A stretch of DNA of 64,000 nucleotides from Candidatus Moraniibacteriota bacterium (lineage in GTDB: Bacteria > Patescibacteriota > Minisyncoccia > Moranbacterales > UBA2206). The notes beneath the pieces were generated by a model. The model was not told the DNA's origin, searched no databases, and saw only the letters and a program-made list of their open reading frames with translations. The stretch lies in the NCBI GenBank assembly GCA_030679995.1, contig JAUXSK010000018.1:121492-185491 (forward strand), read 5' to 3'. Shown here piece by piece: positions 33,636 through 59,224 of the stretch (its first letter is position 1; each line of letters begins with the position of its first letter). The position numbers and the translations under genes were made by a program.

Positions 33636-33770
33636 TTATGATCCGCGCATTGTGATGAAATTTCGAGAGAGTTTCTTGGTCACTTATGTTTGTGCGGGGA
33701 GTCTAATAGTGAAACCGGTTTGGGCCGAAAAGTTGTGAGACTTTTCAGTTTGGACCGGTTTTTTATTTTT
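33636..33770 (+). ncRNA. Conserved structured leader RNA, copy C.
   Basis: Same motif. P1 has a G-U variant (UGUGCGG). The terminator is followed by UUUUUUAUUUUU. It lies 134 nt before the first TasA-like gene. Confidence 0.6.
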
Positions 33771-33903
33771 GGAAAAACAACCCAATTTTAATATATATAA
33801 AGGTCGAGGCGGAAACTGCCTAAAGTTTCAAAATTTTTATTCCGATTCATAAAATAGGAATAAAAAATAATTTTAATCAGCGTTTAATAAATAATAAAAA
33901 ACT

Positions 33904-35088: not shown

Positions 35089-35199
35089 ACAAGATGTAGT
35101 CTTTTACTTCCGCTCATTTTCAAAATGGGCGGGAGAATAAAGATCTAAGGATAATTAATTACTTGCATAAGTAAGTACCTAAGTAAGTATTAAAACAAT

Positions 35200-36543: not shown

Positions 36544-36592
36544 TTATTGTTAAATATGTGATGTCCATCGCGTGCTATAAGAATACATTCTA

Positions 36593-37675: not shown

Positions 37676-37698
37676 TACATAAAATAATATGAAAAGAT

Positions 37699-38355
37699 AT
37701 GACGGATAAAATTTTAAAAATTTTAAAAAATCTCATTTGGACGGCAATCGTCGTATTCCTGATTTTGATCGGTATAACATTCATTCCGATCAAAGGAAAT
37801 TACAAGGTTTATACGGTACAATCAGGTTCGATGGAGCCAGCTATCCATACCGGCAGTTTAATTTTTGTTAAAAGTCAGGAAAGTTACAGTGTAGATGATA
37901 TTGTAACGCGGGCGACCAAAGGCTCAAGAGCGACTGTCACGCATCGTATCATTTCTAAAAAAACGGAAGGTAGCAAGGTAATATTTGAAACCAAGGGAGA
38001 TGCTAATGAGGATCCAGATAGGGAAAGCGTGAGTCAAGATACGATTATTGGTAAGAAATTTTTTCAAATACCATATATCGGCTATCCAGTCGGATACGCT
38101 CGGACGATGCCGGGATTCATCCTTCTTATAATTATCCCAGCCGTAATTATCGTTTATGAAGAGATTAGGAAAATCAAAGAAGAAATCGTGAATATCTGGA
38201 AAAAGAAAAATGGGAAAGAAAATTTGCTTGTGGAAGATAATTTATCGGAAAAAAAATATACCCGAGTGTTAGCAGAGAATAATATCACGAATATAGGTCT
38301 TGAAACCAAAGAAGGCCTTATTAAGAAAGAAAAAATCAGTCGGAAAAAAGGATAA
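37699..38355 (+). CDS. sipW: Signal peptidase I, SipW type (S26B, archaeal/eukaryal-like).
   Basis: VQSGSMEPAIHTGSLIFVK carries the catalytic Ser. There is a C-terminal TM helix and a K/E-rich tail. Confidence 0.8.
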   Translation: MTDKILKILKNLIWTAIVVFLILIGITFIPIKGNYKVYTVQSGSMEPAIHTGSLIFVKSQESYSVDDIVTRATKGSRATVTHRIISKKTEGSKVIFETKGDANEDPDRESVSQDTIIGKKFFQIPYIGYPVGYARTMPGFILLIIIPAVIIVYEEIRKIKEEIVNIWKKKNGKENLLVEDNLSEKKYTRVLAENNITNIGLETKEGLIKKEKISRKKG

Positions 38356-45922: not shown

Positions 45923-45958
45923 ATTTTATTTTTTATATATTTATCGTCCTAACGGCCC

Positions 45959-46726
45959 CTAAACTTCAATTTTGGAAAAGAGATAACTGCCGATAGCCAA
46001 AGTCGCTATTACGAAAATAAGGAGGACGGAAAAGTCGGTATGGAAGTTGAAATGCATCTGGCCGGAAAGCATACCTCTGATTCCATCCACTCCGTAGGAT
46101 AACGGATTGGCATAGGTGATTAATTGGATGGTTTTTGGCAGGCCGCTTAGCGGGAAAAGAGCGCCTGAAAGGAAGAAGAGGGGCATTATTAGAAAATTTA
46201 TGATAATCGGGAAAGCTTGCATATCCTCCATTTTTGAAGCGATGGCTGTTCCGAAAGCGGTGAAGAAAAAAGCTATCAAAACCATATAGATGATCGCTAA
46301 CGGAGCCAGGAAGATATTTTCCGGTCTGAAACCGACAAGTAACGCGATGAAAAAAACCACTATGCCTTGGATGGTCGCCACTGTCGCTCCTCCGAAAGTC
46401 CGGCCCAGCATAATCGTCCAGCGGGGGACTGGAGCGACCAGTGTTTCCTTAAGGAAGCCGAACTGGCGGTCATAGATGACTTCTATGCCGGTAAACATAG
46501 CAGTAAAGATGATGCTCATAGCGATGATTCCAGGCGCGATGAATTGGATATAATTTCCACCTCCCGCTTTTTGGTAGATCGGTCCGAATCCGAAGCCGAG
46601 CGCCACCAAAAAAAGCACCGGCTGGGCTAGGGCGCCTATCATCCTGGCGCGCGAACGGTAATATCTTTTGAGCTGTCTCAGCCAAAGGATATAGATTATT
46701 TTGGAATATCGGTTTATCTTTTCCAT
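45959..46726 (-). CDS. ABC-2 type exporter permease.
   Basis: 6-TM ABC-2 pattern. It overlaps the upstream ATPase gene by 13 nt. Confidence 0.75.
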   Translation of the reverse strand: MEKINRYSKIIYILWLRQLKRYYRSRARMIGALAQPVLFLVALGFGFGPIYQKAGGGNYIQFIAPGIIAMSIIFTAMFTGIEVIYDRQFGFLKETLVAPVPRWTIMLGRTFGGATVATIQGIVVFFIALLVGFRPENIFLAPLAIIYMVLIAFFFTAFGTAIASKMEDMQAFPIIINFLIMPLFFLSGALFPLSGLPKTIQLITYANPLSYGVDGIRGMLSGQMHFNFHTDFSVLLIFVIATLAIGSYLFSKIEV

Positions 46727-47541
46727 ACGCGTCGCATAGTTCTTAATTTATCGATGCCTTTGGCGCCCTCCTCGCGGATTTCCTTACCGGTGAGTTTGAG
46801 GAAAGCGTCTTCCAGCGTTTGGGAATCCGTTTCCTCCTTGAGTTTTTGGGCAGTGCCTTCAGCGACTATTTTTCCATTGTCGATTATGGCGATCCGGTCC
46901 GCCATCCTGTCAGCTTCTTCCATATAATGGGTGCTGAAAAAGACCGTTATGTTTTCTTTCTGGTTCATATCTTTGATGTAGCTCCAAAGATGGTTGCGGG
47001 TTTGCGGATCAAGCCCGAGAGTCGGTTCATCCAGGAAGATTATTTCCGGATGGTGCAGAAGTCCGCGGGCGATTTCCAGGCGTCTTTTCATTCCGCCGGA
47101 AAATTCTTTCACTAAATCATCCTTGCGTTTTTCCAGTTCCACTAACCGAAGCAATTCGGTTATCCTTTCGCGGCGGACCTCTTTCGGGATATCATATAAT
47201 ACCCCATGGAATTCCAAATTTTCAAAAGCGGTAAGATCATCATCCAAGCTGGGATCTTGGAAAATTATACCGAATGAACGACGGACGTCATTAGGGTCGG
47301 TAACTGGATCAAATCCATTAATCAGGATTTTCCCGCTGGTCGGTTGGAGGAGGGTGGTGAACATTTTGATCGTCGTGGTTTTGCCGGCGCCGTTCGGGCC
47401 GAGGAATGCGAATATCTCACCTTTTTCCACTTCGAAGGAAACATCGTCAACAGCCGTGATGTCGTCGAATTTTTTTACCAGATTTTTAACTTTGATGATG
47501 TCCATAATCCTAATTAAAACATACATCCGGACATCCATCAA
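46714..47541 (-). CDS. ABC transporter ATP-binding protein (DrrA/NatA-like).
   Basis: Walker A GPNGAGKTT, signature FSGGMKRR, Walker B IFLDEPT. Confidence 0.9.
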   Translation of the reverse strand: MMDVRMYVLIRIMDIIKVKNLVKKFDDITAVDDVSFEVEKGEIFAFLGPNGAGKTTTIKMFTTLLQPTSGKILINGFDPVTDPNDVRRSFGIIFQDPSLDDDLTAFENLEFHGVLYDIPKEVRRERITELLRLVELEKRKDDLVKEFSGGMKRRLEIARGLLHHPEIIFLDEPTLGLDPQTRNHLWSYIKDMNQKENITVFFSTHYMEEADRMADRIAIIDNGKIVAEGTAQKLKEETDSQTLEDAFLKLTGKEIREEGAKGIDKLRTMRRVWKR

Positions 47542-47672
47542 ACTTTCAGGCTAGTTGCCTGAGGTCAATCTGGCGGGAATGAATTGCCATATATCCGGAT
47601 TTGGTACTATAATCGGGTAGTGGCTGATTGGATAGCCACTTATCCGTTTAATCATTTATTTGTAATAAAATT

Positions 47673-48134
47673 ATGCTTGACGTAAAACCCTATCGGCAAA
47701 AACCCGGATTTTGCGGGCCGGCTTCCCTGAAGATGGTGTTGGATTTTTATGGCGTGGAAAAAAGCGAGGAGGAGCTGGGGAAAATCACCAAGTGCGATCC
47801 GGATAAAGGCATCACCGGCTTGGCTATCGTCAAAGCGGCTGAAAAACTTGGTTTTGCCGGGTTTCTGAAGGATTATGCCAAATTGGAAGATATTAAAAAA
47901 TTTTTAACTAAAAAAATCCCCGTTATCGTAGAGTGGTTTTCAGTGGATGACGGACATTTTTCCGTGGTAGTGGAAATGGATAAAAAATATATTTATCTGC
48001 AGGATCCGGAATTAGCCGGCGTGCGCAAGATCGATTTGGAAACTTTCGAGCGTATCTGGTTCAGTTTCGATACCAAAACCATACGCAAAGAAAGGGATTT
48101 GGTTTTGCGCCGGATGGTCGTGATTGAAAAGTAA
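47673..48134 (+). CDS. Peptidase C39-like domain protein (standalone).
   Basis: YRQKPGFCGPASLKMVL carries the catalytic Cys context; the His is in DGHFSVVVE. An extended -10 tactataat is present upstream. Confidence 0.6.
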   Translation: MLDVKPYRQKPGFCGPASLKMVLDFYGVEKSEEELGKITKCDPDKGITGLAIVKAAEKLGFAGFLKDYAKLEDIKKFLTKKIPVIVEWFSVDDGHFSVVVEMDKKYIYLQDPELAGVRKIDLETFERIWFSFDTKTIRKERDLVLRRMVVIEK

Positions 48135-48162
48135 AATTAAAAACTGCTGTCCTCGGGATAGC
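48096..48162. repeat. Copy 1 of a 67-bp direct repeat: the 3' end of the C39-like gene plus, on the minus strand, a remnant C-terminus (...YPEDSSF*) of a homolog of gene 55516..56109.
   Basis: gatttggttttgcgccggatggtcgtgattgaaaagtaaaattaaaaactgctgtcctcgggatag is about 88% identical to 55472..55540. Confidence 0.75.
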
Positions 48163-48311
48163 GACGATTTTTAAATTGGGAGCTTTGAATTACGGTTATA
48201 ATGCCGATGTTTCCGATATGCAGCACGTCTTTGAATGATATCTCCGAATAATATCCAAAGTGTTTTTTGGCGGCATTTATGCTATTATGGAGCTATAAAC
48301 ATTTGGAAAAT

Positions 48312-50600
48312 ATGCCTAAAAACAAAAAAAAACGGCAACAAGGCGGAATTGATCGGCAAGTGGCAAATGCGCCTCATTTTTTTAACTTTTTTTCCAAGAC
48401 GCGGATTGAAAAAGCCATCAAATTGCTGCTATTTATTTTTCCTTTCGTTCCCTTGGCTAGTTATAGCGGTTTTTTCTTTCCATATATTTCAATCAAGCTT
48501 TTCATAATCTATATCTTGTGCGAAGCGGTTTTTGGCTTATATCTGATCCTGTGTTTTTTAGACAGGAGCTACTGGCCGAATCTCTATCGCAAAAACGGAC
48601 AGGGCGGGAAAAGCGTAAATTGGATCTGGATCAGCTTGGCGGCGTATATGGCGGTTTTGATCTTGACCACTTTTTTTTCCGTGGACATCGCCAAAAGTTT
48701 TTTCGGCAGTATCGGGTTTATGAACGGACTGCTGACATTGCTGCATTTTTTCTTGCTGTTTATGGTGTTTTCGCAGGCGTTTCTCGACCGGAAATTCTGG
48801 ATTCTTTTTTTCCGTCTCAATATGTCAGTCGGAATTTTCATTTCCGCCTATGCGTTGGTCCAAAAGATAGGCGGCGCCGCGGCGCCGATGGCGACTTTCG
48901 GAAATCAGGCCTATCTTTCCGGCTACTTGGTTTTTATCATCTTCCAGGCTTTGACTTTGTTTTGGTGGGATAATAAAAACAATTGGAAGATTTTACATTC
49001 GGTGGCTGGAGCCGCCAGTCTGCTGGCGATCTTCCTGGCGACCGATATCCGCGGTTCCAAATTAGGTGTCGCGGCCGGATTGCTTGCGATAATCCTGCTG
49101 TACGGTTTGGCAAATGAAAAGGAAAAGATTAGAAAATCTTTCCGTTGGTTAATCGTATTGGGGTTGGCAGTCGGGGTGTCGGTTTGTGTCTACGCTATCA
49201 AATCAGGCAAAATTTATTCCGCTTTTGAACGGTCTTATACTGTCAAAACCCGTTTGGTGGCTTGGGAGGCAGGACTGCGCGGTTTCGGCGATAAATTCTT
49301 GACCGGCTATGGCTTGGAAAATTATACGGTGCCGTTTGAAAAATATTTCCAGCCGACTTATTACAACCAGGGCCGGGGCAGTTCCACTGAATTTGGCGCG
49401 GATTCCCCGCATAATAAAATCATTGAGGTGGCGGTTTCGAATGGGGTTTTCGGGCTGTTTGCTTATCTGGGAATATTCGTAGCTGTTTACCAGCTGATTT
49501 ATGCGCGGTATCGAGCTTCGCATCAGAAAATTTTTCTGGGATTGGCCGGACTTTTCGGCGCCTACCTGGCGCATCTGCTTTTCATATTTGATACGGTAGT
49601 CACTTTACTGCTGTTTTTCCCGTCCGTGGCCTTTTTGATTTTCATATCGTATGCGGATGGGACCGGGCCGGCGGAAAAAGAAGAGAAGGTTGGGATTGCT
49701 TTCGGCAAAATGGTTTCTATCGCGGGAGTTGTCGCGATTATTTTCTGTACCTCGGTTTTCTATTTCGTCTGGAAGCCGGCCAAGGCGGTTTGGTATGCCA
49801 ATCAGGCTATAAATTCAGCTAAAGCTGGAAAGTATGCTGAAACATCGGATAATTTGGACAGTTTGCACCGGGAAAATGTCTATTCGGTGGAGGAAAGCGC
49901 GATTTTGGAAATCGGTAAGATTACCCAGATAAATTTCTTTGATAAAATCGATTTCACGCAGGATGATAAAAAATATTTTGAAAAAATAATCGGCTTGGCG
50001 GAGTATAATTTACAACGCAATCCTGACAACCTGCATTATTTCATCGAGCTGGCCTCGCTGTATGACCGGGCCGGCCGGTATGATCAAAATTATTATGCGA
50101 AAAATATCGAGCTTCTAGAAAGGGATCTGCAACGCGGCACTAAACGGATGGAAGCTTATATGATGCTGGCTGACGCTTATGGCGCAACTGGCAACCGGAC
50201 TAGGGCGGAAGAATTGGGCCTGGCCGGCGTGGCGCTGGATCCGACCTATGGCTACGGCTATTTTTTGCTGGGCAATATTTATTTCTACAAACTGGGGGAT
50301 GCAGCCAGGGCCAACGAAAATTTCGAAAAAGCTTTCGAATACGGATATAAAAACGTGAATTCGTTGAAATCCTACGCGGACGTGAATGTGAAAACCGATA
50401 ATTTGCCCAAAGCCATTGCCGCTTTCGAAGACTTGATCAAGCTCAATCCGAAGGACCCGCAGCAATATGCCAATCTCGTTATGTTATATTACAATAATAA
50501 GGACTACCAAAAAGCACGGGATATGGCGGAAAAAACCAAAAAGAAATTTCCCGGCACCCAGGCCCGGATCGACGCTTTCCTAAAAATAATTCCAAAATAA
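48312..50600 (+). CDS. O-antigen ligase/polymerase-family membrane protein (Wzy_C-like) fused to C-terminal TPR repeats. The ORF track opens at 48267.
   Basis: About 11 TM helices with a large loop, then multiple TPR-like helical repeats (LGNIYFYKLGDAARANENFEKAFEYGYKN...). Confidence 0.65.
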   Translation: MPKNKKKRQQGGIDRQVANAPHFFNFFSKTRIEKAIKLLLFIFPFVPLASYSGFFFPYISIKLFIIYILCEAVFGLYLILCFLDRSYWPNLYRKNGQGGKSVNWIWISLAAYMAVLILTTFFSVDIAKSFFGSIGFMNGLLTLLHFFLLFMVFSQAFLDRKFWILFFRLNMSVGIFISAYALVQKIGGAAAPMATFGNQAYLSGYLVFIIFQALTLFWWDNKNNWKILHSVAGAASLLAIFLATDIRGSKLGVAAGLLAIILLYGLANEKEKIRKSFRWLIVLGLAVGVSVCVYAIKSGKIYSAFERSYTVKTRLVAWEAGLRGFGDKFLTGYGLENYTVPFEKYFQPTYYNQGRGSSTEFGADSPHNKIIEVAVSNGVFGLFAYLGIFVAVYQLIYARYRASHQKIFLGLAGLFGAYLAHLLFIFDTVVTLLLFFPSVAFLIFISYADGTGPAEKEEKVGIAFGKMVSIAGVVAIIFCTSVFYFVWKPAKAVWYANQAINSAKAGKYAETSDNLDSLHRENVYSVEESAILEIGKITQINFFDKIDFTQDDKKYFEKIIGLAEYNLQRNPDNLHYFIELASLYDRAGRYDQNYYAKNIELLERDLQRGTKRMEAYMMLADAYGATGNRTRAEELGLAGVALDPTYGYGYFLLGNIYFYKLGDAARANENFEKAFEYGYKNVNSLKSYADVNVKTDNLPKAIAAFEDLIKLNPKDPQQYANLVMLYYNNKDYQKARDMAEKTKKKFPGTQARIDAFLKIIPK

Positions 50601-51988
50601 TGTTTTATAGCGATCGATTATTGATGCGAAAAATAATCCTGTTGGCAGGTGACGTTGCGCTGTTTTTCTTTGCGCTTTTTTTGGCGCTTTCCATCCGGCA
50701 GGTGCGGGTGGTTTCTGCGGACTATTATCAGATAAATCTGCAGGTTTTTTGGCCGATTTTCGCGATGTCCGTTGTAATATATTTCCTATTTGACTTGTAT
50801 AACATCAAAATGCTGCAAAAAATATACCGTTCGGTCTACTTTCTTTTTTTGGCGGTGGCAACCAACATCCTGCTGGCCGTTTCGTTCTGGTATGTTTTTT
50901 ATTCGGAAACCGAGGTGACGCCAAAGACCGGATTGCTCCTCTATGGAGCGCTGGTGTTCTTATTGACGGTCGTCTGGCGCTTCCTCTATCATGACCTATT
51001 TTTCAATAACAGCAGATATCAAAAAAGAATCGTGATAGTCGGCGGGGAAGAGCAAAATGAAGAATTGCTGAAAATTGCCAATCCGCCGCAAGGAGCGGAC
51101 TATAAAATCGTCGGCTATATTTCCCAAACGGCTGGCCAGGATTCGATGGTTTTCCAAAGCATACCATATTTGGGAAATTTCCATGATATCCAGAAAATCA
51201 TCCGCGAACAGAAAGTCGAGGAATTGATCGTAGCTTTCGATTACCGCCGTAACCGTGAATGCGTGAAAGAGTTGTCCGACTCTTTGAATTTCGGGATCAA
51301 AATTTTCGAATGGCCGGTTTTCTTCGAACAGGTCTTCCAGAAAGTCCCTACTAATCAGATAGATCATTTTTGGTTCATCTATGGCTTGGGTGATGCGGAT
51401 AGAAAGCTGTACGAAAGGATAAAAAGACTGCTGGATATGCTGGTCGCGGTGGTCGGCCTGATTTTTTCAGCGTGCGTCTTGCCTTTGGTCGCGATCGCGG
51501 TAAAATCAACATCACGTGGTCCGATTTTCTATCGGCAAAAAAGGATGGGATTCAATGGCAAGTTGTTCACTTTGATAAAATTCCGCACGATGGAGAATCA
51601 AGCTGAAAAAAATGGAGTCCAATGGGCCTCCAAGAATGATGCCAGGGTGACAATGGTCGGCCGATTTTTACGCCGGACGCGTCTGGATGAAATTCCGCAA
51701 TTCATAAATATCTTGAAAGGTGAAATGAGTCTGGTCGGACCGCGGCCTGAGCGGCCGGAATTTTTGGAAACCCTCTCTGAAAAAATCCCGTTCTATTACA
51801 AAAGGAATATGGTTCTGCCGGGGCTGACCGGTTTCGCCCAAATAATGTATCCCTATGCGGCGACCGTCGAAGATTCACTGGAAAAAGTCGGCTATGACCT
51901 CTATTACATCAAAAACCGATCACTCTTCCTTTATTTGAAAATAGTCTTATTGACAGTGAGGACGGCACTGTCCTTTAGCGGCCGGTAA
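50600..51988 (+). CDS. Polyprenyl-phosphate sugar phosphotransferase (WbaP/CpsE 'bacterial sugar transferase' family): an initiating glycosyltransferase.
   Basis: C-terminal PF02397 signature [25 protein letters not shown]...[22 protein letters not shown]-terminal TM bundle. A 1-nt overlap with the upstream gene. Confidence 0.85.
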
Positions 51989-51990
51989 TC

Positions 51991-53256
51991 CTATCTGAAA
52001 AATAACTCATTTAAGGAAATATTTTGTTTTTGGTTCAATATCACGGAATATCTTAAATTAAAAAAGACAAAAAGCGATAAGGACAGAACAATTATGGTAA
52101 AAATAAATTTCCTCAAGACAGGGGATTTTATTTTTTCCTGGATGAACTTCACGCCATAAAAAGTGAAAAAAGCGGCGATGAGATATGTCAGCGGCCAGAG
52201 CAGGATAAGCGAACGAAAAGCATAATAATTGACTGAAGAAAAAATTGTAAAAATGAAAGAGGCTGAGAAAATGGCGAGTATTTTGTATTGCTTGTAGTAT
52301 GCCAGTATGAGCAGAAGCATTGAAAAAATGGCGGCTGCTGACCAATGGGGAAACATAAATTTGAAATAATCCCTTTCAAGAAAAATCATTCCCGGGAAAA
52401 TGCCTGGGCTGGCTACGTTTTCCATTTTGTCTTGGGAGATATGGCTTCCATTTTTGATTATCTGGGCAGTCGATTCCTTGGAAAGACCAGACGGTCCATA
52501 TGGATTATTTTTATAAAACATCGATGGGGCGATGTAGGACAAAAATAACAAAAACAAGACGAACGCGGTTTTTTTGATGATCGTCCATTCTATCCTTTTG
52601 GATAATATGCTGTAGAAAAAACAAAAAGCAATTAAAATAAAAGAGAAATATACCCCGATGGTATGCGAATAAACCATCGCAGGTATGACCAGCAGTGAAA
52701 AAATTTTCCAATGCTTGTTATCGTCAAGTATCAATGCGAATAGGAGCAAGAAAAGCAGCAGCGCGAAAAAGCTCGGAACGACCCAAAAAAAACCATGATA
52801 AGTGCCGGCGCCGTTGAATAGCGCTAGAAAAAATATTGCTAGCGCCGTTAGATTTTTGTTGTCGCTGAATTGCTTTACGAAATAAACCAAGACTGGCAGC
52901 AGCAGGATCGTTCCGATGTAAAAATTCAGCTTGAATGCTTGATAAGATGTTATATCGAGAATTTTTGCCAGCGAACCCAGCGGCAGCCTGTATGTTAGAT
53001 GTTCCCAGAAAACATACCTATTCGGCGTAAAGTTGTCTGTGCTGCAAAAAATGAAGCTAGGGCAATTTTTTACGGATTCAATGTGCCGTACGTATGATGC
53101 GATGTCATCTGCCGATCCGGGGGCATTCAAGCCGTTGCTTAAAAAAATACCTATTAAAAAAAATTTCCAGGCGATGAAAAAAAATATCGCAGCGATGAGC
53201 CATTTGTTTTCATTGATAAATAATCGCAGTTGTCCATTTTTGAAATAATTATTCAT
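51991..53256 (-). CDS. Polytopic membrane protein (candidate Wzy-type polymerase/EpsG-like).
   Basis: About 11 TM helices with no soluble domain. It is embedded in the glycan cassette. Confidence 0.5.
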   Translation of the reverse strand: MNNYFKNGQLRLFINENKWLIAAIFFFIAWKFFLIGIFLSNGLNAPGSADDIASYVRHIESVKNCPSFIFCSTDNFTPNRYVFWEHLTYRLPLGSLAKILDITSYQAFKLNFYIGTILLLPVLVYFVKQFSDNKNLTALAIFFLALFNGAGTYHGFFWVVPSFFALLLFLLLFALILDDNKHWKIFSLLVIPAMVYSHTIGVYFSFILIAFCFFYSILSKRIEWTIIKKTAFVLFLLFLSYIAPSMFYKNNPYGPSGLSKESTAQIIKNGSHISQDKMENVASPGIFPGMIFLERDYFKFMFPHWSAAAIFSMLLLILAYYKQYKILAIFSASFIFTIFSSVNYYAFRSLILLWPLTYLIAAFFTFYGVKFIQEKIKSPVLRKFIFTIIVLSLSLFVFFNLRYSVILNQKQNISLNELFFR

Positions 53257-53260
53257 AGTT

Positions 53261-54214
53261 TTATTTATTATAAAGCTTGATGTATTTGCCGGTTATTTTA
53301 GTCCAAGAAAAATTTTTAGCAATCCGGATGGCTTCCGCCCCGCCCCGTTTCCTTTCTTCCTTCGAGGTGATGAATTTTTTCAGGATTGCCTGATAATCCT
53401 CATCAGTGCGGGCGATATGTCCCTCCATCTGTCCAGTTAGGATTTCTTCAATCGATCCGACGACGTTGCTTATTACCGGCAAGCCGAAAGCCATCGCCTC
53501 AAGCACGGCCAGTGGTTGGTTATCAAGCATCGAATAATAAGCGAATATGTCGATCCGGTTAAAGAGATCTTCTTTTTCGCAATAGCCTAAAAACTCAGTG
53601 TTGGCATGGATTTCCAGGATAGTTTTTTTGTATGCTTCGAAAAAAACCCCGCCGCCTCCGATAACGAGCGTCGCTTCGGGAGAAACGGCCTCGATTATTC
53701 TGGCGAGCTTTACGGTTCCGTCAGCTTTTTTCCGGAAATTGAAATTGGTCAGAATCCCTAATTTAGGATTTTTTGAATCGAGGTCATAGGTCGTTTTGGT
53801 CGTTTCGGGGATATTTACGCCGTTGGGAATGACGAGAATTTTTTTAATTCCCAAGGTTTTTTTGAGGAAATTTGAAGGTGTGGTGGTGAAATCGGCTTGT
53901 TGGATGATTAATGGATAAAAAAATCGGCCCAAGTGCTTTTCGGCTTTGAAATTGCCATGGATAGTCAAAATATATTTTTTGCAAAATAAATTCGGTACCG
54001 GTACGCAGGAATGGACGATGTCGTAGCGTTGGAACATTTGTTTGAGGTAGGCTTTTCTGCCCCAAATCACCGTGACAGCATAACCACGCTTTTCCAAATG
54101 TTTGGCTAAATTTTGCGCCCAGACATACGGCCCGCCTTGGGAAAAAGTGATAATGAGTACGGTTTTTTTCTTTGATGACATAAAAAGCTCGGTTACTTCA
54201 TAAGTATTTACCAT
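53261..54214 (-). CDS. GT4 (GT1-fold) glycosyltransferase.
   Basis: EAMAFGLPVISNVVGSIEEIL is the C-terminal GT4 EX7E-region motif. Confidence 0.8.
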   Translation of the reverse strand: MVNTYEVTELFMSSKKKTVLIITFSQGGPYVWAQNLAKHLEKRGYAVTVIWGRKAYLKQMFQRYDIVHSCVPVPNLFCKKYILTIHGNFKAEKHLGRFFYPLIIQQADFTTTPSNFLKKTLGIKKILVIPNGVNIPETTKTTYDLDSKNPKLGILTNFNFRKKADGTVKLARIIEAVSPEATLVIGGGGVFFEAYKKTILEIHANTEFLGYCEKEDLFNRIDIFAYYSMLDNQPLAVLEAMAFGLPVISNVVGSIEEILTGQMEGHIARTDEDYQAILKKFITSKEERKRGGAEAIRIAKNFSWTKITGKYIKLYNK

Positions 54215-54291
54215 TATACACTTTTTCGCTTTTTTCCGCCTCTGTTTCGTGATATATTTAGGATAGCTTATGGAAAATCGGCTTAAATTCT

Positions 54292-55398
54292 ATGAAAAAG
54301 GCAAAAATCCTCTATATTATCACCCAATCCGACTGGGGAGGGGCCCAGAAGTACGTTTTTGACTTAGCGAACGGTCTCAAGGGCGAATTTGAGGTCTCAG
54401 TGGCTTTTGGCGGCAAGGGCAGGCTGAGTGATCGATTGCAGGCGATAGGCATCAGAACCCATCGGTTGGAGAATTTGGTGCGGGAAATCCATCCTTGGAA
54501 AGACTTTTTGGTTTTTTGGGAAATCTACCGTCTGATTAAAAAAGAAAAACCGGATATCGTGCACACCAATTCCTCCAAGGCGGAAATTCTGGGTAATATC
54601 GCGGCAAGGCTCGCCGGAGTCGAAAGAGTCGTTTTTACGGCACACGGTTTCGTTTTTAATGAGAATCTTGGTTTTTGGAAAAAAACCTTTTTTATTTTTT
54701 GGGAAAGATTGGCTGGACTTTTCGCTACACGGATAATTTGCGTGTCGGATTTTGATCGTAAGTCAGCGCTGAAAAATAAAATATCTCCAGCTAGAAAATT
54801 GTGCGTCATCCACAATGGTATTGAAATCCCGGCAGGAAATTTAGCGCGTGTTGAAAGGGCGGGTAGAAAAATCATCATCGGCACGATTGCCAACTTCTAT
54901 CGCAACAAAGGACTGGAGTTTCTGGTCCAAGCGGCGGCGGAATTGAATAAAAAATTTCCCAATTTGGAATTCCGGGTGGCCGGCGATGGAGGAGAAAGGC
55001 GCAATATCGAAGATGCCATAAAGAAACAGCGGTTGCAAAATTTCAAACTGCTGGGTTTTCAAGAAGAACAATATGATTTTTTGCGGCAGCTGGATATTTT
55101 TGTTTTGCCGTCACTCAAAGAAGGTTTGCCGTACGCGCTTCTAGAGGCGTTGTCGCTGGGTGTGCCGGCGGTAGCTAGCAAGGTTGGCGGTATTCCGGAG
55201 ATAATTTCCGATGGGGAAAATGGTTTTTTGGTGGAACCGAAAAATTCCAAGATGCTGGCGGAAAAAATCAACCTTCTGCTTGGGAATGAAAGGCTGAAGG
55301 CGGAATTTTCCCGGTCAGGACGGGAAATAATCCAGGCGGAATTTTCCCTGGGATGGATGCTGGCGCGGACACAGGAAGCGTATATCGGGATAGTCTGA
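54292..55398 (+). CDS. GT4 (GT1-fold) glycosyltransferase.
   Basis: EALSLGVPAVASKVGGIPEII...GFLVEP. Confidence 0.8.
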   Translation: MKKAKILYIITQSDWGGAQKYVFDLANGLKGEFEVSVAFGGKGRLSDRLQAIGIRTHRLENLVREIHPWKDFLVFWEIYRLIKKEKPDIVHTNSSKAEILGNIAARLAGVERVVFTAHGFVFNENLGFWKKTFFIFWERLAGLFATRIICVSDFDRKSALKNKISPARKLCVIHNGIEIPAGNLARVERAGRKIIIGTIANFYRNKGLEFLVQAAAELNKKFPNLEFRVAGDGGERRNIEDAIKKQRLQNFKLLGFQEEQYDFLRQLDIFVLPSLKEGLPYALLEALSLGVPAVASKVGGIPEIISDGENGFLVEPKNSKMLAEKINLLLGNERLKAEFSRSGREIIQAEFSLGWMLARTQEAYIGIV

Positions 55399-55471
55399 AG
55401 GAGCCTTTTTATTTTTTACAAAAATACGTTAGACGTGAAACCTTTTTGACAGTGAATTTATGCGGATCAAG

Positions 55472-55540
55472 GATGATTTGGTTTCGCGCCGGATGGTCGT
55501 GATCGAAAAGGAAAATTAAAAACCGCTGTCCTTGGGATAG
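55472..55540. repeat. Copy 2 of the 67-bp direct repeat. It holds an orphan 19-codon remnant (MRIKDDLVSRRMVVIEKEN*) of a C39-like gene 3' end on the plus strand, and the true 3' end of gene 55516..56109 on the minus strand.
   Basis: ggatgatttggtttcgcgccggatggtcgtgatcgaaaaggaaaattaaaaaccgctgtccttgggatag. Confidence 0.75.
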
Positions 55541-56109
55541 TGTCCGAAGCCGTCGTTCCTGCGGGCGGCTTTTTCGGTCGCGAGCGAGAAGTCGTGGGCA
55601 TTGTCATAGCTCGTGCCTTTTTCCATCAGTTTGGCTTCGTGCAGTTCGTGGAGCAATGTGTATTTGATTTCCCTGCCGTCCTGGGCGTCATCGATCCAAA
55701 TTTCGTTTTTTGGGACATAATCATATATCAGATTATGTCCGCCCAGGAAAAAATCCGGATCCAGCTTTGCGCGCACTTCCCGGCCGGATACCAAGAATAT
55801 TTTGAAGCCCGAAGATTTTCCAAGCGGTTTTATTTTGAACGGTTCTGTTTTTATGCCGGCCGTCTTCTTAGCTGCGTCGGTGATTCTTCGGCGGACAAAA
55901 GCGCCATATTTTTCGGCGCCAAGTTCGGTTTTCAATTTCCGGTCGGCCAGGAAGCTTTGCACGATCCGGTCTTTTTCGGCCAAATAACTTTTTTCCAGCC
56001 AGAGTTCGCCCTTGGGAACGTAGGTCTGGCTCTGGCTGTCTTCGATAGCGCAGAAATTTGGGTCAAGGGTGTTTCTGATTTCGAAGCCGTCGACGATTTT
56101 GATTTTCAT
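55516..56109 (-). CDS. Hypothetical protein with an internal tandem duplication and an HExxH motif (possible small zincin-like metalloprotein).
   Basis: Repeat 1 GFEIRNTLDPNFCAIEDSQSQTYVPKGELWLEK is paralleled by repeat 2 GREVRAKLDPDFFLGGHNLIYDYVPKNEIWIDD. HELHE lies at residues 154-158. Confidence 0.5.
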   Translation of the reverse strand: MKIKIVDGFEIRNTLDPNFCAIEDSQSQTYVPKGELWLEKSYLAEKDRIVQSFLADRKLKTELGAEKYGAFVRRRITDAAKKTAGIKTEPFKIKPLGKSSGFKIFLVSGREVRAKLDPDFFLGGHNLIYDYVPKNEIWIDDAQDGREIKYTLLHELHEAKLMEKGTSYDNAHDFSLATEKAARRNDGFGHYPKDSGF

Positions 56110-56309
56110 AAGTTTCGCGTTAATGTGATAAGTCTGGGGTTATTCTAACACGGCAGGCGGAAAACCGGCAAAGTTCCGCGGAGAATGCGGGTCTGGCAAT
56201 TTTTGGAAATTATGGGATAATTGTTTGTACTATATGCGATCAGCAGATCGGAATATTTGTCTGATTGAAATCGGTGATGATGTTTTTTTAAAATCAATGA
56301 GGAGGAAGT

Positions 56310-56681
56310 ATGATGTCTACGAGAATCGTTTACTGGAAGCCTGCGGCGAAAAAAAGAGCCACCTGCCGCATAAATCCAATCGCGAAATGGGGTGAGGCAT
56401 ATTGTTCTTTATGTCAGACGAAGTTGACGCAAGAAGAGGAGCGTGCAGGAATAGAATTTCATTTCAATTGCGTCCTGCTGAGATGTAAAACGCTTTTGAA
56501 GAGGCATGATATTTCCGTCCCATCGCAAGGAACGGAGAAATTTCTTAAGCACCTGTTTTTTTCTAATGAAATTACGGAAGGAAAAGCGGTGATAGCGGAG
56601 GGGACTTTTTTCTTTCTGAGCGCGACAGATCCGTTTTTTTCATTCAACCGGCTTCGTCGTGAAGCGGAGGCGTTCGGATAG
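56310..56681 (+). CDS. Hypothetical 123-aa protein.
   Basis: Strong SD (GAGGAGGAAG) before the ATG. Cys pairs CRINP...CSLCQ. No homology recognised. Confidence 0.4.
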   Translation: MMSTRIVYWKPAAKKRATCRINPIAKWGEAYCSLCQTKLTQEEERAGIEFHFNCVLLRCKTLLKRHDISVPSQGTEKFLKHLFFSNEITEGKAVIAEGTFFFLSATDPFFSFNRLRREAEAFG

Positions 56682-56843
56682 TATTGCTATCCGTATTGAG
56701 TTTGTCCATTCAACTGTAATGGACAAGCTCTTTTTTATGATTTTGAAGCTGGCAGGAAAGCCATTATTGCCAGAAACGCTTCCCAAAAACAAAAATATGT
56801 TGTACCATAGAAACTCGATATTATTTTTTTATCCTATCCGGCT

Positions 56844-58295
56844 ATGGCGAATGATAACGTGGCGGTCAGATTCAATAAGGTGTCCTTCGAATACGGACGC
56901 GACAAGCCTATTTTAGACGAGGCGTCTTTCGCGTTGCGCCGCGGTTCGAAAATCACCCTGATGGGCCAGAACGGAGCCGGCAAGAGCACGATCCTTAATA
57001 TGATCACTGGGGAATTGAAAGTGCACGACGGTTCTATCTATGTCGATCCGGGTTTGAGGATCGCCTATGCCAAACAAGTCATTCCGCGCGAACAAATGCC
57101 GCTGACTATGCGGGAATTTTTCGCGGCTTGTTTTTCTGGAAAAGATTATGAGCTTGACCGGCAAATTGAAGATGTTTTGGAAGTGGTCAACTTGAAGGCG
57201 CCGTCCGACCGGCTGATCAAAGACTTTTCCGGCGGGCAACAGGCACGTTTGCTCTTGGCTTCCGCTTTGATCCAGAATCCGGACATTTTGATTTTGGACG
57301 AGCCGACCAATAACCTGGACCGGGCCGGCATCGAACATTTGACCCAATTTTTGATAATGTATGATAAGACTTGCATCGTCATTTCGCACGATGCGGACTT
57401 TTTGAATATGTTCACCGACGGCGTGCTGTATCTGGATGTTTTCACGAAAAAAATCGACCAATATATCGGCGACTACTATGTGGTGGTGGCGGAAATCGCG
57501 GCTCGCATTGAAAAGGAAGAGCGCAAGAACGCGCAATATGAAAAAGAAATCATCGCTAACAAAGAAAAAGCTAATTTTTTCGCCAACAAGGGAGGCGGTA
57601 TGCGTTTGGTAGCTAAGAAGATGCGCGAAAAAGCGGCGGCTATGGAGGAGGCCAAAGTGGACGTGCGGCGGGAGGACAAGGCGATCCGGGAATTTGAGAT
57701 TCCGGTCCAAGAGGGATTGGGCGGGGAAATATTGAACATCTCGTCTTTTACGATTATGCAGGATCATAAACTGGTTGAAAAAAAAGCTAACATTTCCTTG
57801 AAGAAAAGGAGCCATCTTTTGATTTCAGGACCAAACGGTATCGGCAAAAGTACTTTGATCGAGGCGATGGCGTTAGACAAAGCAGCGGGCGCCAAAATCA
57901 CTGAGGATATGCGCGTGGGTTATTATCGCCAAGATTTCTCGACTTTGAATTTCGACCACACCGTGCGTGAATCGTTGTTTTCCGTGATGCGTTCTGAGGA
58001 TGAGGAGCGGATGCGCAGCGTGGCTTCCGGTTTTTTGTTGACCAAGGAGGTCATCAATGCCAGGATCGGAACCTTGTCCGAAGGCCAGAAAGGCCTAGTA
58101 GCTTTCGCGCAACTGGTGCTTCTGGAGCCGGGGCTTTTGATTTTGGACGAGCCGACCAATCATATCAACTTCCGCCATTTGCCGGTCATCGCCAATGCTT
58201 TGGATAGATTCGAAGGCGCGATGATTTTGGTTTCCCATGTGCCGGAATTCGTGGAACAGATCCGGATCGACGAAGTGCTGGATTTGGAAAAATAG
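56844..58295 (+). CDS. ABC-F family ATPase (two tandem ABC domains, no TMD).
   Basis: Two Walker A sites (GQNGAGKST, GPNGIGKST), two signatures (FSGGQQARL, LSEGQKGLV), a linker with a K/E-rich helix. At 483 aa it is short for the family. Confidence 0.8.
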   Translation: MANDNVAVRFNKVSFEYGRDKPILDEASFALRRGSKITLMGQNGAGKSTILNMITGELKVHDGSIYVDPGLRIAYAKQVIPREQMPLTMREFFAACFSGKDYELDRQIEDVLEVVNLKAPSDRLIKDFSGGQQARLLLASALIQNPDILILDEPTNNLDRAGIEHLTQFLIMYDKTCIVISHDADFLNMFTDGVLYLDVFTKKIDQYIGDYYVVVAEIAARIEKEERKNAQYEKEIIANKEKANFFANKGGGMRLVAKKMREKAAAMEEAKVDVRREDKAIREFEIPVQEGLGGEILNISSFTIMQDHKLVEKKANISLKKRSHLLISGPNGIGKSTLIEAMALDKAAGAKITEDMRVGYYRQDFSTLNFDHTVRESLFSVMRSEDEERMRSVASGFLLTKEVINARIGTLSEGQKGLVAFAQLVLLEPGLLILDEPTNHINFRHLPVIANALDRFEGAMILVSHVPEFVEQIRIDEVLDLEK

Positions 58296-58365
58296 TTTTT
58301 GATTTTTTTAGGTTATGGCGCAGGGCGCAAGCCAGGTACTTTTTATCTTAATAACGGGGGGCGGG

Positions 58366-58644
58366 ATGAGAAAAACCAGATTGTTTTTTTGGGTGGTAAT
58401 ATTGATTTTTTTCGGGGCTATGTTGGAAGAAAGAAGGGTTGGCTTGAGGATTATCCCATTCCAATTCGCTTCGGATGCGGTATGCCTGATTCCGGCGGAG
58501 GCGGAATTGGTGGAAGCGGATTACGCTCTGGCGGGTTGCTACTATTATATCGGCGGAAAAAAGCATTTTTCTGCCGGATATGTCGTTGGCGATGCGGAAC
58601 CGCAGCGTAAAAACGCCTTTAAAATCGCGTTCAGCCAGCCGTAG
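58366..58644 (+). CDS. Possible small membrane protein (low confidence).
   Basis: ORF with a hydrophobic N-terminus (RLFFWVVILIFFGAML). A strong terminator lies immediately downstream. Confidence 0.25.
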   Translation: MRKTRLFFWVVILIFFGAMLEERRVGLRIIPFQFASDAVCLIPAEAELVEADYALAGCYYYIGGKKHFSAGYVVGDAEPQRKNAFKIAFSQP

Positions 58645-58653
58645 CGGGTTTAT

Positions 58654-58696
58654 AGCCTATGGTTCCCTTTTGTGGAACCATAGGCTGATTTTTTTG
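58654..58696 (+). terminator. Rho-independent terminator.
   Basis: agcctatggttcc-cttttgt-ggaaccataggct followed by gattttttt. Confidence 0.85.
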
Positions 58697-58830
58697 TCCC
58701 GCAGGCACCCCTTTACAAAGCGCGCAGGGTATGCTATAGTGGTTTTAATCACAGTAGCGTGCAGCAGTAGCGTAGTCGAACTTTCTTTGCATTGCGGTAT
58801 GTGTATTTAATTAATTTGTACTATATCAAA

Positions 58831-59031
58831 ATGGCACAAGGAACAATCAAACGATTGACTGATCGTGGATTCGGATTCATCACACAAGATGGTGAAGACA
58901 AGGATCTATTCTTTCATGCAAAAGAACTACAAGGTGTAGAATTCAATGACCTGAAGGAAGGCGACCGTGTTCAATTCGAAGTTAGCGAAAGCCCGAAAGG
59001 ACCAAACGCTACCAACGTATCAAGAGTCTAG
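58831..59031 (+). CDS. cspA: Cold-shock protein (CspA family).
   Basis: MAQGTIKRLTDRGFGFITQDGEDKDLFFHAKEL contains the RNP1/RNP2 motifs. An extended -10 tgctatagt sits upstream with a long 5' UTR. Confidence 0.9.
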   Translation: MAQGTIKRLTDRGFGFITQDGEDKDLFFHAKELQGVEFNDLKEGDRVQFEVSESPKGPNATNVSRV

Positions 59032-59043
59032 TTCGATTCGCGA

Positions 59044-59079
59044 ACAAAAAAAAGCTCCGCTTCACGCGGAGCTTTTTTT
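59044..59079. terminator. Bidirectional rho-independent terminator.
   Basis: aaaaaaaa-gctccgc-ttcac-gcggagc-ttttttt. Confidence 0.85.
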
Positions 59080-59224
59080 GTTTGCCAAGAGGTATTGATT
59101 AATTGGATAAAACGGAGTAAGATGCTAGGATTGCAATATTAGGAAAATCTGTATGGTTGTCATCCGAACTGAGCAATGCGGATTCCGGATCAAGTCCGGA
59201 ATGACAATTTTAGATAATATTATT

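Follow-up and report, generated by a model that had tools for sequence, protein, structure and literature searches.

A five-gene glycan cassette of 7.3 kb in this 64,000-nucleotide stretch of Candidatus Moranbacteria DNA (hereafter the window) is probably enclosed in a recombination scar, formed when a single-crossover or unequal-exchange insertion entered a convergent pair of genes, C39 -> <- HExxH, and the spare C39 gene then decayed. The features that bear on this reading are listed below (asterisks are stops).

47655..48163, plus: duplication unit 1, in which ~18 nt of leader on the 5' side precede the intact gene C39(1) (47673-48134) and 29 nt of orphaned HExxH 3' sequence follow it
48096..48163, plus: repeat copy 1 (core), the last 12 sense codons and stop of C39(1), then the orphan HExxH 3' end
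48137..48163, minus: orphan HExxH C-terminus remnant, (R)YPEDSSF*, from translation
48145..48173, plus: terminator-like element of C39(1) from a terminator scan, with an 8-bp hairpin at 48145-48163 and then ACGATTTTTA
48153..48161, plus: left copy of an exact 9-nt direct repeat, TCGGGATAG
48164..48250, plus: spacer of 87 nt with a perfect TATAAT at 48196-48201
48251..55403, plus: glycan cassette proper, orthologous to positions 1717-8831 of the relative L003 and weakly on to the GT4 stop
48312..50600, plus: Wzy_C (O-antigen-ligase family) membrane protein with C-terminal TPR repeats, 762 aa
50600..51988, plus: initiating polyprenyl glycosylphosphotransferase, 462 aa (Pfam Bac_transf, E = 4e-64)
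51991..53256, minus: polytopic membrane protein of GT-C glycosyltransferase fold, 421 aa
53261..54214, minus: GT4 glycosyltransferase, 317 aa (Pfam Glycos_transf_1, E = 1e-18)
54292..55398, plus: GT4 glycosyltransferase, 368 aa (Pfam Glycos_transf_1, E = 5e-40)
55385..55393, plus: right copy of TCGGGATAG, within the last GT4 codons
55408..55444, plus: 5' remnant of a second C39 gene, C39(2), with leader, start mutated to ACG and codons 2-7, reading TLDVKPF* on translation
55444..55519, plus: 3' remnant of C39(2), ...MRIKDDLVSRRMVVIEKEN*, aligning to the relative L002 from 10393 and to L003 from 10401
55475..55542, plus: repeat copy 2 (core); its plus strand has an orphaned C39 3' end, its minus strand the genuine 3' end of HExxH
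55516..56109, minus: intact HExxH/HExxE-motif protein, 197 aa, the partner of C39

Direct repeats flanking the cassette

The repeats at 48096-48161 and 55475-55540, the only such pair in the region, emerged from a repeat finder and again when the window was compared with itself by BLAST. The copies share 61/66 bases (92%, E ~3e-20), start 7379 nt apart and go on matching to 48163/55542 (62/68). When the copy-1 sequence was searched with up to 3 mismatches, copy 1 alone was recovered, and none of 100 shuffles gave any match. The pair of 67-bp direct repeats described in an earlier, sequence-only reading as bounding the cassette is therefore confirmed, but it is not a bare repeat. The 66 nt are the best-conserved core of a larger, whole-gene duplication, which spans at least 509 nt because 55408-55444 preserves the 5' remnant of another C39 gene. 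Measured by homology to the single junction of the closest relative, L002, the duplicated stretch is 99 nt long, L002 10393-10491 aligning to the window twice.

The same reading had taken copy 1 as the genuine 3' end of the C39 gene and copy 2 as that of the HExxH gene at 55516-56109. Both assignments were upheld, and the plus strand of copy 2 does read MRIKDDLVSRRMVVIEKEN* at 55460-55519. The minus strand of copy 1 translates to ...KNRRYPEDSSF* as stated, but its homology to the HExxH protein is limited to R-YPEDSSF* against ...GHYPKDSGF*.

The intact C39 copy and the left join

Unit 1 aligns as one block to L002 9979-10491 (86%). The protein encoded by C39(1) matches Pfam Peptidase_C39 with 63 bits (cutoff 22), keeps the catalytic-type Cys14 and His95, and shows a dN/dS of 0.09 against L002. 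A private G-to-T change in copy 1 ends it two codons early (EK* not EKEN*). Homology to L002, L003 and copy 2 stops exactly at 48163, the 3' foot of the hairpin (folding energy -11 kcal/mol with a modest z of -1.8), and the left join at 48163/48164 is non-homologous. The 87-nt spacer that follows may carry the cassette promoter; searches of the window and of 92 loci found nothing significant for it, so that the join is not traceable to a source. The two copies of TCGGGATAG bracket spacer and cassette, and this 9-nt repeat is a candidate microhomology.

The second C39 copy and its mosaic surroundings

Right of the cassette, the 5' remnant of C39(2) matches 47655-47689 at 27/35 bases, a score reached by none of 1000 dinucleotide shuffles, and its best matches in both L002 and L003 are likewise at the start of the gene. 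Collinearity and reading frame are kept in the 3' remnant, and ~370 nt (equivalent to 47692-48064) are deleted between the two. Copy 2 is a second C39 gene decayed to a pseudogene, its start changed from ATG to ACG and those internal bases lost; it also has an L-to-S change in the conserved LRRM motif.

Judged from the alignments, this pseudogene and the intact C39(1) represent separate alleles. Over the 31 nt that adjoin the core on its left, the copies are alike at 14/31, copy 1 agreeing with L002 at 24/31 and copy 2 with L003 at 23/31. At the 17 sites that differ between the copies, copy 2 follows L003 at 12 (P = 0.002 versus random decay). At the protein level, a derived motif, TK(T/I)IRKE(R/K)D, is common to C39(1) and L002, and the remnant keeps the family-consensus EFMR.KDD.

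Seven consecutive L003-type sites (55452-55472) turn L002-type between 55472 and 55477, and the right join is an in-register homologous crossover located where the core begins on its left. The allele is the same in both cores, which together with this switch fits a heteroduplex or gene-conversion tract at the crossover. Further right, the flank alternates between L003-like and L002-like in ~1-kb patches; the region reads as a recombination patchwork on that scale, pointing to pervasive recombination. Since it is mosaic, the L002-like and L003-like labels cannot pinpoint a single event. Also weighing against the reading given at the outset, the L003-like patch in the C39(2) remnant is short and consists mostly of shared ancestral states, and the 5' remnant is closer to L002 (13/13 at L002 codons 3-7).

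The junction and the cassette in related genomes

In L002, C39 (10001-10468, plus) and HExxH (10465-11058, minus) are convergent and overlap by 4 nt; the flanks are syntenic, the cassette is absent and C39 is 89% identical. This is the empty site whose discovery the sequence-only reading had suggested as a check. L003 also keeps a single C39/HExxH junction, and L005-L007 and L075 carry the same convergent pair; these findings support the ancestral order C39 -> <- HExxH proposed before. The pairing is ancient and widespread. That L002, L003 and relatives further off have one junction each indicates that the filled site is derived. The genes flanking the cassette are direct neighbours in related genomes, and a duplicated junction around unrelated content was found in no relative examined. 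Only two close relatives are present in the collections searched, and polarity and donor identity thus rest on three genomes.

In L003, the same five genes form a cassette with unchanged orientation and no flanking repeats, ~1.1 kb upstream of C39. The two cassettes align over 7119 nt at 84% identity. Their dS of 0.46-0.82, compared with 1.24-1.41 for five left-flank genes, puts the synonymous divergence of the cassette from L003 at about half that of the left flank. A close copy of the cassette is not on record for L002. The cassette had been called strain-variable; its position and presence do differ in L003 and L002, but the relatives compared are species-level (about 78-88% DNA identity), and the variation is between such relatives, not strains.

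The HExxH protein shares 90% amino-acid identity with its L002 orthologue (dN/dS 0.13). It has no Pfam or NCBIfam match, and its AF2 model (pLDDT 94) has no PDB fold match.

Gene content of the cassette

The first cassette gene matches Pfam Wzy_C with 54 bits (cutoff 31.7) as well as several TPR families. Its start is likely the ATG at 48312, and the L003 orthologue is also 762 aa long. The product of 50600..51988 scores 382 bits against NCBIfam TIGR03025 (cutoff 296). The 421-aa membrane protein, which had been described as Wzy-like, has no Pfam or NCBIfam match. With its AF2 model (pLDDT 83.5), Foldseek returned STT3, PglB, AglB, ALG9, DPY19 and ArnT (probability 1.0, TM-scores up to 0.60); the Wzy identity was rejected in favor of a GT-C-fold glycosyltransferase. 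A close orthologue of it is on record solely for the genome of L003. The 368-aa GT4 ends in IGIV*, versus RECREEGQS* in L003, a difference caused by a 1-nt indel.

Based on these protein families, the cassette most likely builds a lipid-linked oligosaccharide, through the phosphoglycosyl transferase and the two GT4 enzymes, which the GT-C and Wzy_C/TPR ligase-type enzymes would most likely modify or transfer to a cell-surface acceptor. The composition of the cassette is native-like, and the comparison of GC and codon usage with the flanks, another check suggested earlier, gave no foreign signature.

Models for the origin of the scar

In the model that we favor, the starting point would be the convergent, overlapping pair C39 -> <- HExxH, and the incoming DNA would consist of the spacer, the five-gene cassette and a C39 gene of its own, joined in the lineage of the window. 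On the right side, a homologous in-register crossover would have taken place at the C39 3' end, where the 66-nt core begins on its left. The other join, 29 nt past the C39 stop at the hairpin foot, would have been non-homologous. In formal terms, this would be a Campbell-type single crossover of a circularised fragment, which equals an unequal exchange or template switch. The cassette would end up with a copy of the unit, C39 together with the beginning of the HExxH 3' end, to either side of it, so that both resident genes kept their 3' ends. The C39 on the right, being redundant, would then have decayed through the start, deletion and LRRM changes given above, the core staying as a visible direct repeat. 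What the sequences show are the anatomy, the single junction of the relatives, the pseudogene, the difference in allele, the mosaic ancestry and the lack of mobility genes; in what order things happened, through which intermediate (circular or unequal) and with which partner as donor or recipient is what we infer here.

Insertion by homologous recombination at the junction, as first proposed, holds for the right boundary, but the non-homologous left join means that homologous recombination alone does not account for the structure. A plain Campbell integration also predicts one donor-type core, yet both cores carry the same allele, so that conversion, or a donor identical in the core, is needed. 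The donor order that the model predicts, with GT4 directly upstream of C39, was seen in no relative; L003 has two genes between them.

We consider it unlikely that the duplication came first, with a tandem C39 unit (leader, gene and ~35-40 nt downstream) whose neutral orphan tail, between two C39 copies, was later entered by the spacer and cassette, duplicating or using TCGGGATAG. The shared core allele is what an in-genome duplication should give, the exact 9-nt repeat (48153-48161 / 55385-55393) brackets spacer and cassette (5/2000 shuffles reach its score in local context), and 55387-55402 might represent a third remnant of a junction tail (GGGATA--GTCTGAAG vs GGGATAGCGTCCGAAG, 44/2000 shuffles). 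However, 55376-55403 aligns equally well to the native GT4 3' end of L003 with a 1-nt indel, the 14/31 identity left of the core is non-random and not predicted by a recent tandem duplication, and a tandem C39 pair is present in no relative examined. This explanation would fall if the native GT4 3' end TCGGGATAGTCTGAAGGAGCC were found adjoining the C39 leader in a donor-type relative. It is also improbable that the cassette stayed in place and the left side moved, an L002-like fragment running from the left flank through C39 to 29 nt past its stop having replaced the region upstream in an original, L003-like order of cassette - C39 -> <- HExxH, followed by decay of the native C39. The whole left flank and C39(1) are indeed L002-like (dS 0.5-0.8 to L002 vs ~1.4 to L003), similarity to L003 is seen in the cassette, in ABC-F, in CSD and in part of the C39(2) remnant, and in L003 the cassette already lies upstream of C39 in this orientation. 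But HExxH and both cores are L002-like, and an extra deletion would be needed to remove the genes that part cassette from C39 in L003. The joins and the kind of event would be the same as in the favored model, the difference being only in which partner is called the donor.

The filled site is very unlikely to be ancestral, a case in which L002 and L003 would have dropped or relocated the cassette. The overlapping junction would be rebuilt precisely if the direct repeats recombined, so that the empty site of L002 cannot alone give polarity. Yet the single junctions in L002, L003, L005-L007 and L075 would require several independent precise losses, L003 still has the cassette at another place, and the C39/HExxH pairing is old. 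A mobile element, either an integrase-borne island with attL/attR or a transposon with target-site duplication, would explain a discrete gene block between direct repeats with an exact 9-nt repeat at its inner edges, but is highly improbable. The five cassette genes all encode glycan enzymes, with no integrase, transposase or recombinase among them (Pfam, NCBIfam); no tRNA or Rfam element was found, and the boundaries are without terminal inverted repeats. The repeats themselves are what remains of a whole gene, with 92% identity and exact matches that run to 18 bases at most, the composition is native-like and the L003 cassette has no such repeats. Hardly credible is a chimeric contig joined through the repeat. 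The data do come from a metagenome assembly with co-occurring related populations, but the 18 nt of the longest exact run common to both copies are too short for a k-mer misassembly. Moreover, a Logan contig (L089), 100% identical to window 47697-55588, spans both copies, both joins and the whole cassette, and a contig of another MAG assembly (L001), 99.9% identical to 55168-56677, takes in the right join. With the structure reproduced in two other assemblies, it is not an artefact.

Comparison with known systems

The scar would be a clear but ordinary case of recombination reshuffling surface-glycan genes, an event of a known type. Surface-polysaccharide loci are exchanged by homologous recombination in conserved flanks, as in the O-antigen galF-gnd and pneumococcal cps dexB-aliA regions. 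As in those loci, a glycan block varies here in presence or position among relatives within a recombination-rich neighborhood. However, that exchange is cassette for cassette at a fixed site, with homology on both sides and no duplication, whereas here the site differs between relatives and one join is non-homologous.

A precedent comes from E. coli experiments, in which, beside homology-facilitated illegitimate recombination, donors with one-end homology were mostly circularised and integrated through one crossover, so that 109-950 bp of the homologous locus became duplicated (PMC3240628). There as here, a direct duplication (at least 509 nt in our case) flanks the insert, one join is homologous and the other novel and non-homologous, and no dedicated recombinase is involved (PMC3240628). 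In contrast to those experiments, ours is a natural event in an uncultured CPR bacterium, read from sequence, with a putative circular intermediate; the unit covers the overlapping ends of two convergent genes, and decay has since overtaken one of its copies. Homology-facilitated illegitimate recombination in Acinetobacter, S. pneumoniae and P. stutzeri likewise combines a one-sided homologous anchor with an illegitimate join and brings in DNA without a recipient homologue, TCGGGATAG being a possible microhomology at the join (PMC3240628, PMC5361080). The canonical process, however, deletes recipient DNA, which is here duplicated (PMC3240628, PMC5361080), and TCGGGATAG is not placed as a simple illegitimate join predicts. 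The orphan 3'-end and immunity-gene arrays of T6SS, Rhs and CDI loci are similar in that successive incoming modules leave truncated 3' remnants of the gene they displace beside the new insert, as a fossil record (PMC5361080). There, toxin and immunity modules are exchanged at a 5' region that stays constant (PMC5361080), whereas here the insert is a glycan cassette that separates a convergent pair and leaves the two resident genes intact.

The flanking repeats and their authenticity

The five-gene glycan cassette of 7.3 kb is bounded by two direct repeats, which the sequence-only reading had described as 67 bp long and made of two convergent gene 3′ ends. This description was confirmed for both strands: the cores of the two copies are identical at 61 of 66 bases, lie 7379 nt apart and form the only such repeat pair in the region. 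The features of the locus are:

47673-48134, plus strand, intact C39 gene left of the cassette, C39(1)
48096-48161, core of repeat copy 1
48164-48250, 87-nt spacer before the cassette proper
54292-55398, GT4 gene at the right edge of the cassette
55475-55540, core of repeat copy 2
55516-56109, minus strand, HExxH gene (197 aa, HExxH/HExxE motif), convergent partner of C39

Copy 1 is the end of C39(1), and its minus strand reads ...KNRRYPEDSSF followed by a stop; copy 2 is the end of the HExxH gene, with MRIKDDLVSRRMVVIEKEN and a stop on the plus strand. A search with the copy-1 sequence, allowing up to three mismatches, matched copy 1 alone, and none of 100 shuffles gave a match. Of the five core differences, four lie in whichever half of a copy is no longer part of a live gene, a bias that is not significant with five sites. 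The C39(1) product is predicted to be a Peptidase C39 family member from its profile match (PF03412, 63.4 bits against a cutoff of 22) and from Cys14 and His95, nearly invariant among 12 homologues.

The sequence-only reading had named an assembly artefact as the observation that would refute it. This is not what was found. Over 47697-55588, a Logan contig (run SRR13727519) agrees with the window at 100% identity, and over 55168-56677 a contig of another MAG assembly does so at 99.9%. With these matches, and with 18 nt as the longest exact run common to both copies, the repeats are not an assembly artefact. The 66-nt core was also considered as a structured RNA or terminator, a candidate that was rejected because its 8-bp hairpin is only modest (z = -0.7 to -1.9) and an Rfam search of the core gave no match.

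A single junction in related genomes

From the source names of the exact or closest proteins, the window belongs to Candidatus Moranbacteria (CPR/Patescibacteria). Two close relatives were recovered, with C39 proteins 89% (L002/L008) and 78% (L003/L004) identical, and further scans of genome and metagenome collections gave no others. The genome-collection scan with the HExxH alignment returned 80 loci, of which only the L002 contig was close; the metagenome scan with C39 gave one distant match, and an exact-protein look-up for C39 gave none.

L002 is syntenic with the window both to the left of the junction (cysteine synthase, 265-aa C39_2 protein, 150-aa gene) and to its right (120-aa ORF, ABC-F, cold-shock protein, HI0933-like protein). 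In L002, C39 (10001-10468, plus strand) and HExxH (10465-11058, minus strand) overlap by 4 nt with nothing in between, which is the empty ancestral arrangement of convergent genes that had been proposed. In the DNA alignment, window 47649-48163 corresponds to L002 9979-10491 and window 55444-56724 to L002 10393-11654. Thus 99 nt of the lone L002 junction (10393-10491) occur twice in the window, at 48065-48163 and at 55444-55542.

The junction is single in L003 too, where 57 nt of a mostly deleted HExxH gene follow C39, and the more distant loci L005-L007 and L075 carry a convergent C39/HExxH pair a few bases apart. The flanking repeats therefore map to one single-copy target in genomes without the insert at this site (L002, L003, L005-L007). 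C39 is the immediate neighbor in around 40 of 83 HExxH-family loci, mostly in the same direction, and convergent in the Moranbacteria-like group. Since relatives have single junctions and C39 adjoins HExxH in about 40 of these 83 loci, the gene pair is probably old and the filled site of the window, with the cassette between C39 and HExxH, a derived state. The loss of HExxH in L003 (10469-10832, with the 57 nt of its 3′ end left after C39) makes this partner gene dispensable in that lineage.

A decayed second C39 gene

The repeat itself exists as first described, but it is the core of a longer duplicated unit that held a second C39 gene, not a bare 67-bp repeat. The stretch 55408-55442 matches the C39 leader, start codon and first codons (47655-47689) at 27 of 35 bases, with none of 1000 dinucleotide shuffles as good, and its best matches in L002 (13/13) and L003 fall at the same gene-start position. 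The start codon of this second copy, C39(2), is now ACG, and the frame reads TLDVKPF before a stop. As the 5′ remnant directly adjoins the 3′ remnant, and the two cover both gene ends, copy 2 is a second C39 gene from which ~370 internal bases have been lost. The duplicated unit originally spanned at least 509 nt, beginning ~18 nt before the C39 start and reaching 29 nt beyond the stop, and the 66-nt repeat is its best-conserved core. Between L002 and L003, too, conservation is highest in this core (53/66, against 18/31 directly to its left).

Mosaic ancestry of the locus

The two repeat copies represent different alleles. Only 14 of the 31 nt that precede the core are identical between them, while copy 1 matches L002 at 24/31 and copy 2 matches L003 at 23/31. 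At the 17 sites that differ between the copies, copy 2 agrees with L003 at 12 (P = 0.002 against random decay). At the protein level, C39(1) and L002 have in common the derived motif TK(T/I)IRKE(R/K)D; the C39(2) remnant keeps the family-consensus EFMR.KDD, as do L003 and other homologues. In the remnant, seven L003-type sites stand in a row (55452-55472), and the sequence is L002-type from a point between 55472 and 55477, the left edge of the core. Both cores have an identical allele pattern and are closer to each other (61/66) than to L002 (57 and 59) or L003 (52 and 52).

Synonymous divergence varies along the locus. Against L003, dS was 0.46-0.82 for the five cassette genes and 1.24-1.41 for five left-flank genes including C39(1); on the right it was 0.44 for ABC-F and 0.08 for the cold-shock gene. 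Against L002, the left flank, C39(1) and HExxH gave 0.35-0.80 (the fast-evolving C39_2 gene and a 91-aa ORF excepted), and ABC-F 0.78. A change of ancestry thus coincides with each repeat copy. Because the right flank itself alternates in ~1-kb patches of informative sites (0 L002-type and 32 L003-type at 57400-57599; 47 and 9 at 58600-58799), the locus lies where lineages frequently exchange short tracts by recombination.

The fine mosaic was observed across 56800-59400, in ABC-F and its neighbors, which is L003-like at 57000-58000 and L002-like at 58200-58800. Its pattern indicates frequent short-tract homologous exchange among Moranbacteria lineages. A second rearrangement hot spot lies beside the first, the interval between the 150-aa gene and C39 differing in all three close genomes:

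window 45923-47672, ABC-2 permease and ATPase pair
L002 7738-10000, 174-aa gene, superoxide dismutase, cupredoxin and 74-aa gene
L003 9836-10000, nothing

The cassette and its relatives

The same five genes, in like order and orientation, are present as a cassette in L003 (window 48251-55363 against L003 1717-8831, 84% over 7119 nt), where its neighbors are the C39_2 gene on one side and, on the other, two small genes preceding C39. Flanking repeats were looked for around the L003 cassette and were not found. The genes are:

Wzy_C (O-antigen-ligase family) protein with TPR repeats
polyprenyl glycosylphosphotransferase (TIGR03025, 382 bits against an NCBIfam cutoff of 296)
two GT4 enzymes
421-aa protein with a modelled GT-C fold

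The 421-aa protein had been taken for a Wzy-like membrane protein, which was not borne out: it has no Pfam match, and its model (pLDDT 83.5) matches the GT-C membrane domains of STT3, PglB, AglB, ALG9, DPY19 and ArnT, so that it is predicted to carry a GT-C glycosyltransferase fold. Its one close relative on record is the L003 copy (85%) and the next match is at 43%; hence no close copy is on record for the L002 genome. Like a Wzx/Wzy-dependent cluster, the cassette has an initiating phosphoglycosyl transferase and two GT4 genes; unlike one, it holds neither a Wzy polymerase nor a Wzx flippase. No Polysacc_synt/Wzx family match was found in it with Pfam or NCBIfam, and its sole Wzy_C-family protein is the TPR fusion. 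Distant homologues of the GT-C protein always lie in larger glycan clusters and were never found beside C39, and a functional linkage between cassette and C39 was rejected on this ground.

The five cassette genes and both flanking genes are maintained by selection, given a dN/dS of 0.05-0.18. The comparison of GC and codon usage with the flanks, proposed as a check, did not set the cassette apart: in GC, GC3 (P = 0.24) and codon usage it is not an outlier, other parts of the window deviate far more, and a foreign origin by composition was rejected. Such native-like composition is expected of exchange among close relatives. The gene blocks 1916-6391 and 27058-38355 have a GC3 of 0.34-0.47, against ~0.55-0.65 in the rest of the window, a far stronger deviation than that of the cassette.

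The two joins and a model for the insertion

On the left, homology to every relative ends at 48163, the 3′ foot of the 8-bp hairpin, and ATTTTT follows. The 87-nt spacer beyond it gave nothing significant against HExxH genes, C39_2 3′ ends, L003 intergenic regions, the window or all 92 loci. On the right, the cassette extends to the GT4 stop and the C39(2) leader starts ~10 nt later. The locus therefore has one novel non-homologous join (48163) and one in-register homologous switch (55472-55477). An exact 9-mer, TCGGGATAG, brackets spacer and cassette (48153-48161 and 55385-55393; 5/2000 local shuffles), sitting 2 nt left of the left join and again at the GT4 end. Canonical homology-facilitated illegitimate recombination would place a microhomology of 3-10 bp exactly at the illegitimate join. 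The event may have used the 9-mer as a microhomology, the 9-mer may belong to a third junction remnant, or it may be coincidental; a third remnant at the GT4 end is not separable from native GT4 sequence. The GT4 gene ends in IGIV and a stop, and its L003 orthologue continues with RECREEGQS, the cause being a 1-nt indel at the edge of the cassette (55376-55398).

Mobility genes, tRNAs, Rfam families and inverted terminal repeats were looked for and none was found. Pfam and NCBIfam scans of the five cassette genes and their neighbors gave only glycan enzymes, C39, ABC transporters and HExxH, with no integrase, transposase or recombinase. An integrase-mediated island, in which the attL/attR cores are identical and often at a tRNA or tmRNA 3′ end, was rejected: there is no integrase, the repeats are not identical (61/66, exact run of at most 18 nt), and the window holds no tRNA or tmRNA. 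A transposon or IS element was rejected as well, in the absence of a transposase and of any inverted repeat with arms at the cassette boundaries.

The sequence-only interpretation of a cassette insertion is supported overall, with amendments. The anatomy requires one in-register homologous exchange at the C39 3′ end, one non-homologous join, and a product in which a C39 unit flanks the insert on either side. This product would arise if a circularised fragment with the cassette and a C39 copy entered the chromosome by a single crossover; an unequal exchange would yield it too, as would a template switch exiting at the hairpin and returning by homology. The identical allele in both cores could come from heteroduplex repair where the crossover took place, or from gene conversion at a later time. 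Plain insertion where the gene ends overlap could not have kept C39 and HExxH intact; the duplication would have left both intact. The spare C39 would then have decayed, shortening and weakening the repeats and so stabilising the insert.

Campbell-type insertion-duplication is similar in three respects: the repeats correspond to one single-copy target in insert-free genomes, the insert brings its own C39 copy of an allele distinct from C39(1), and one non-homologous join accompanies one in-register switch. Escherichia coli donors with homology at one end mostly give single-crossover integration, duplicating 109-950 bp of the homologous locus (PMC3240628). Canonical homology-facilitated illegitimate recombination deletes recipient DNA (PMC3240628; see also PMC5361080), whereas here recipient sequence is duplicated. 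The locus looks like a recombination scar, of a type already known, in a lineage that has been little studied. Two readings of the donor are compatible with it, one in which the cassette entered an L002-like junction and one in which an L002-like left flank arrived beside a resident cassette; a small tandem duplication may or may not have preceded the insertion.

We give very little credence to a more elaborate reading, in which the cassette is a recombinase-free mobile glycan module. It would circularise and recombine into C39-family peptidase genes at their 3′ ends, moving inside one Moranbacteria genome or from one to another; it would carry a gene copy that heals its target and could be lost by recombination between the flanking repeats. 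Its sites would lie downstream of the 265-aa C39_2 gene in L003 and of the 153-aa C39 gene in the window. If true, it would give CPR bacteria a gain-and-loss switch for a surface glycan.

The locus reveals neither a new mechanism nor a new system, and its value is as a worked case and a marker. It is an unusually legible natural case of a gene block placed between overlapping convergent genes with neither damaged, and it suggests how both survive, the junction being duplicated and the spare gene copy then decaying. Together with the ~1-kb mosaic of the flanks, the scar is direct sequence evidence that uncultured Moranbacteria (CPR) often exchange DNA, by both homologous and illegitimate recombination, and that surface-glycan genes take part. 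The two states of the junction, filled and empty, could be followed in metagenomes of the sampled sites.

Other observations in the window

An intergenic element of ~150 nt is present in three copies that are 78-85% identical:

20345-20500, upstream of the gene starting at 20524
26855-27012, upstream of the gene starting at 27058
33622-33780, upstream of the gene starting at 33904

Each matches the c-di-GMP-II-GAG riboswitch aptamer (RF03169) over its full length but scores below the threshold (31 bits, gathering score 40, E = 2e-4); a long terminator stem and then a U-run come after the match. Three compensatory pairs occur across the three copies. The elements are candidates for variant c-di-GMP-II-clan riboswitches in a CPR genome. 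Self-BLAST also revealed further internal direct repeats, at 4421-4504 and 5009-5092 (86% over 84 nt) and at 334-402 and 1752-1820 (88% over 69 nt).
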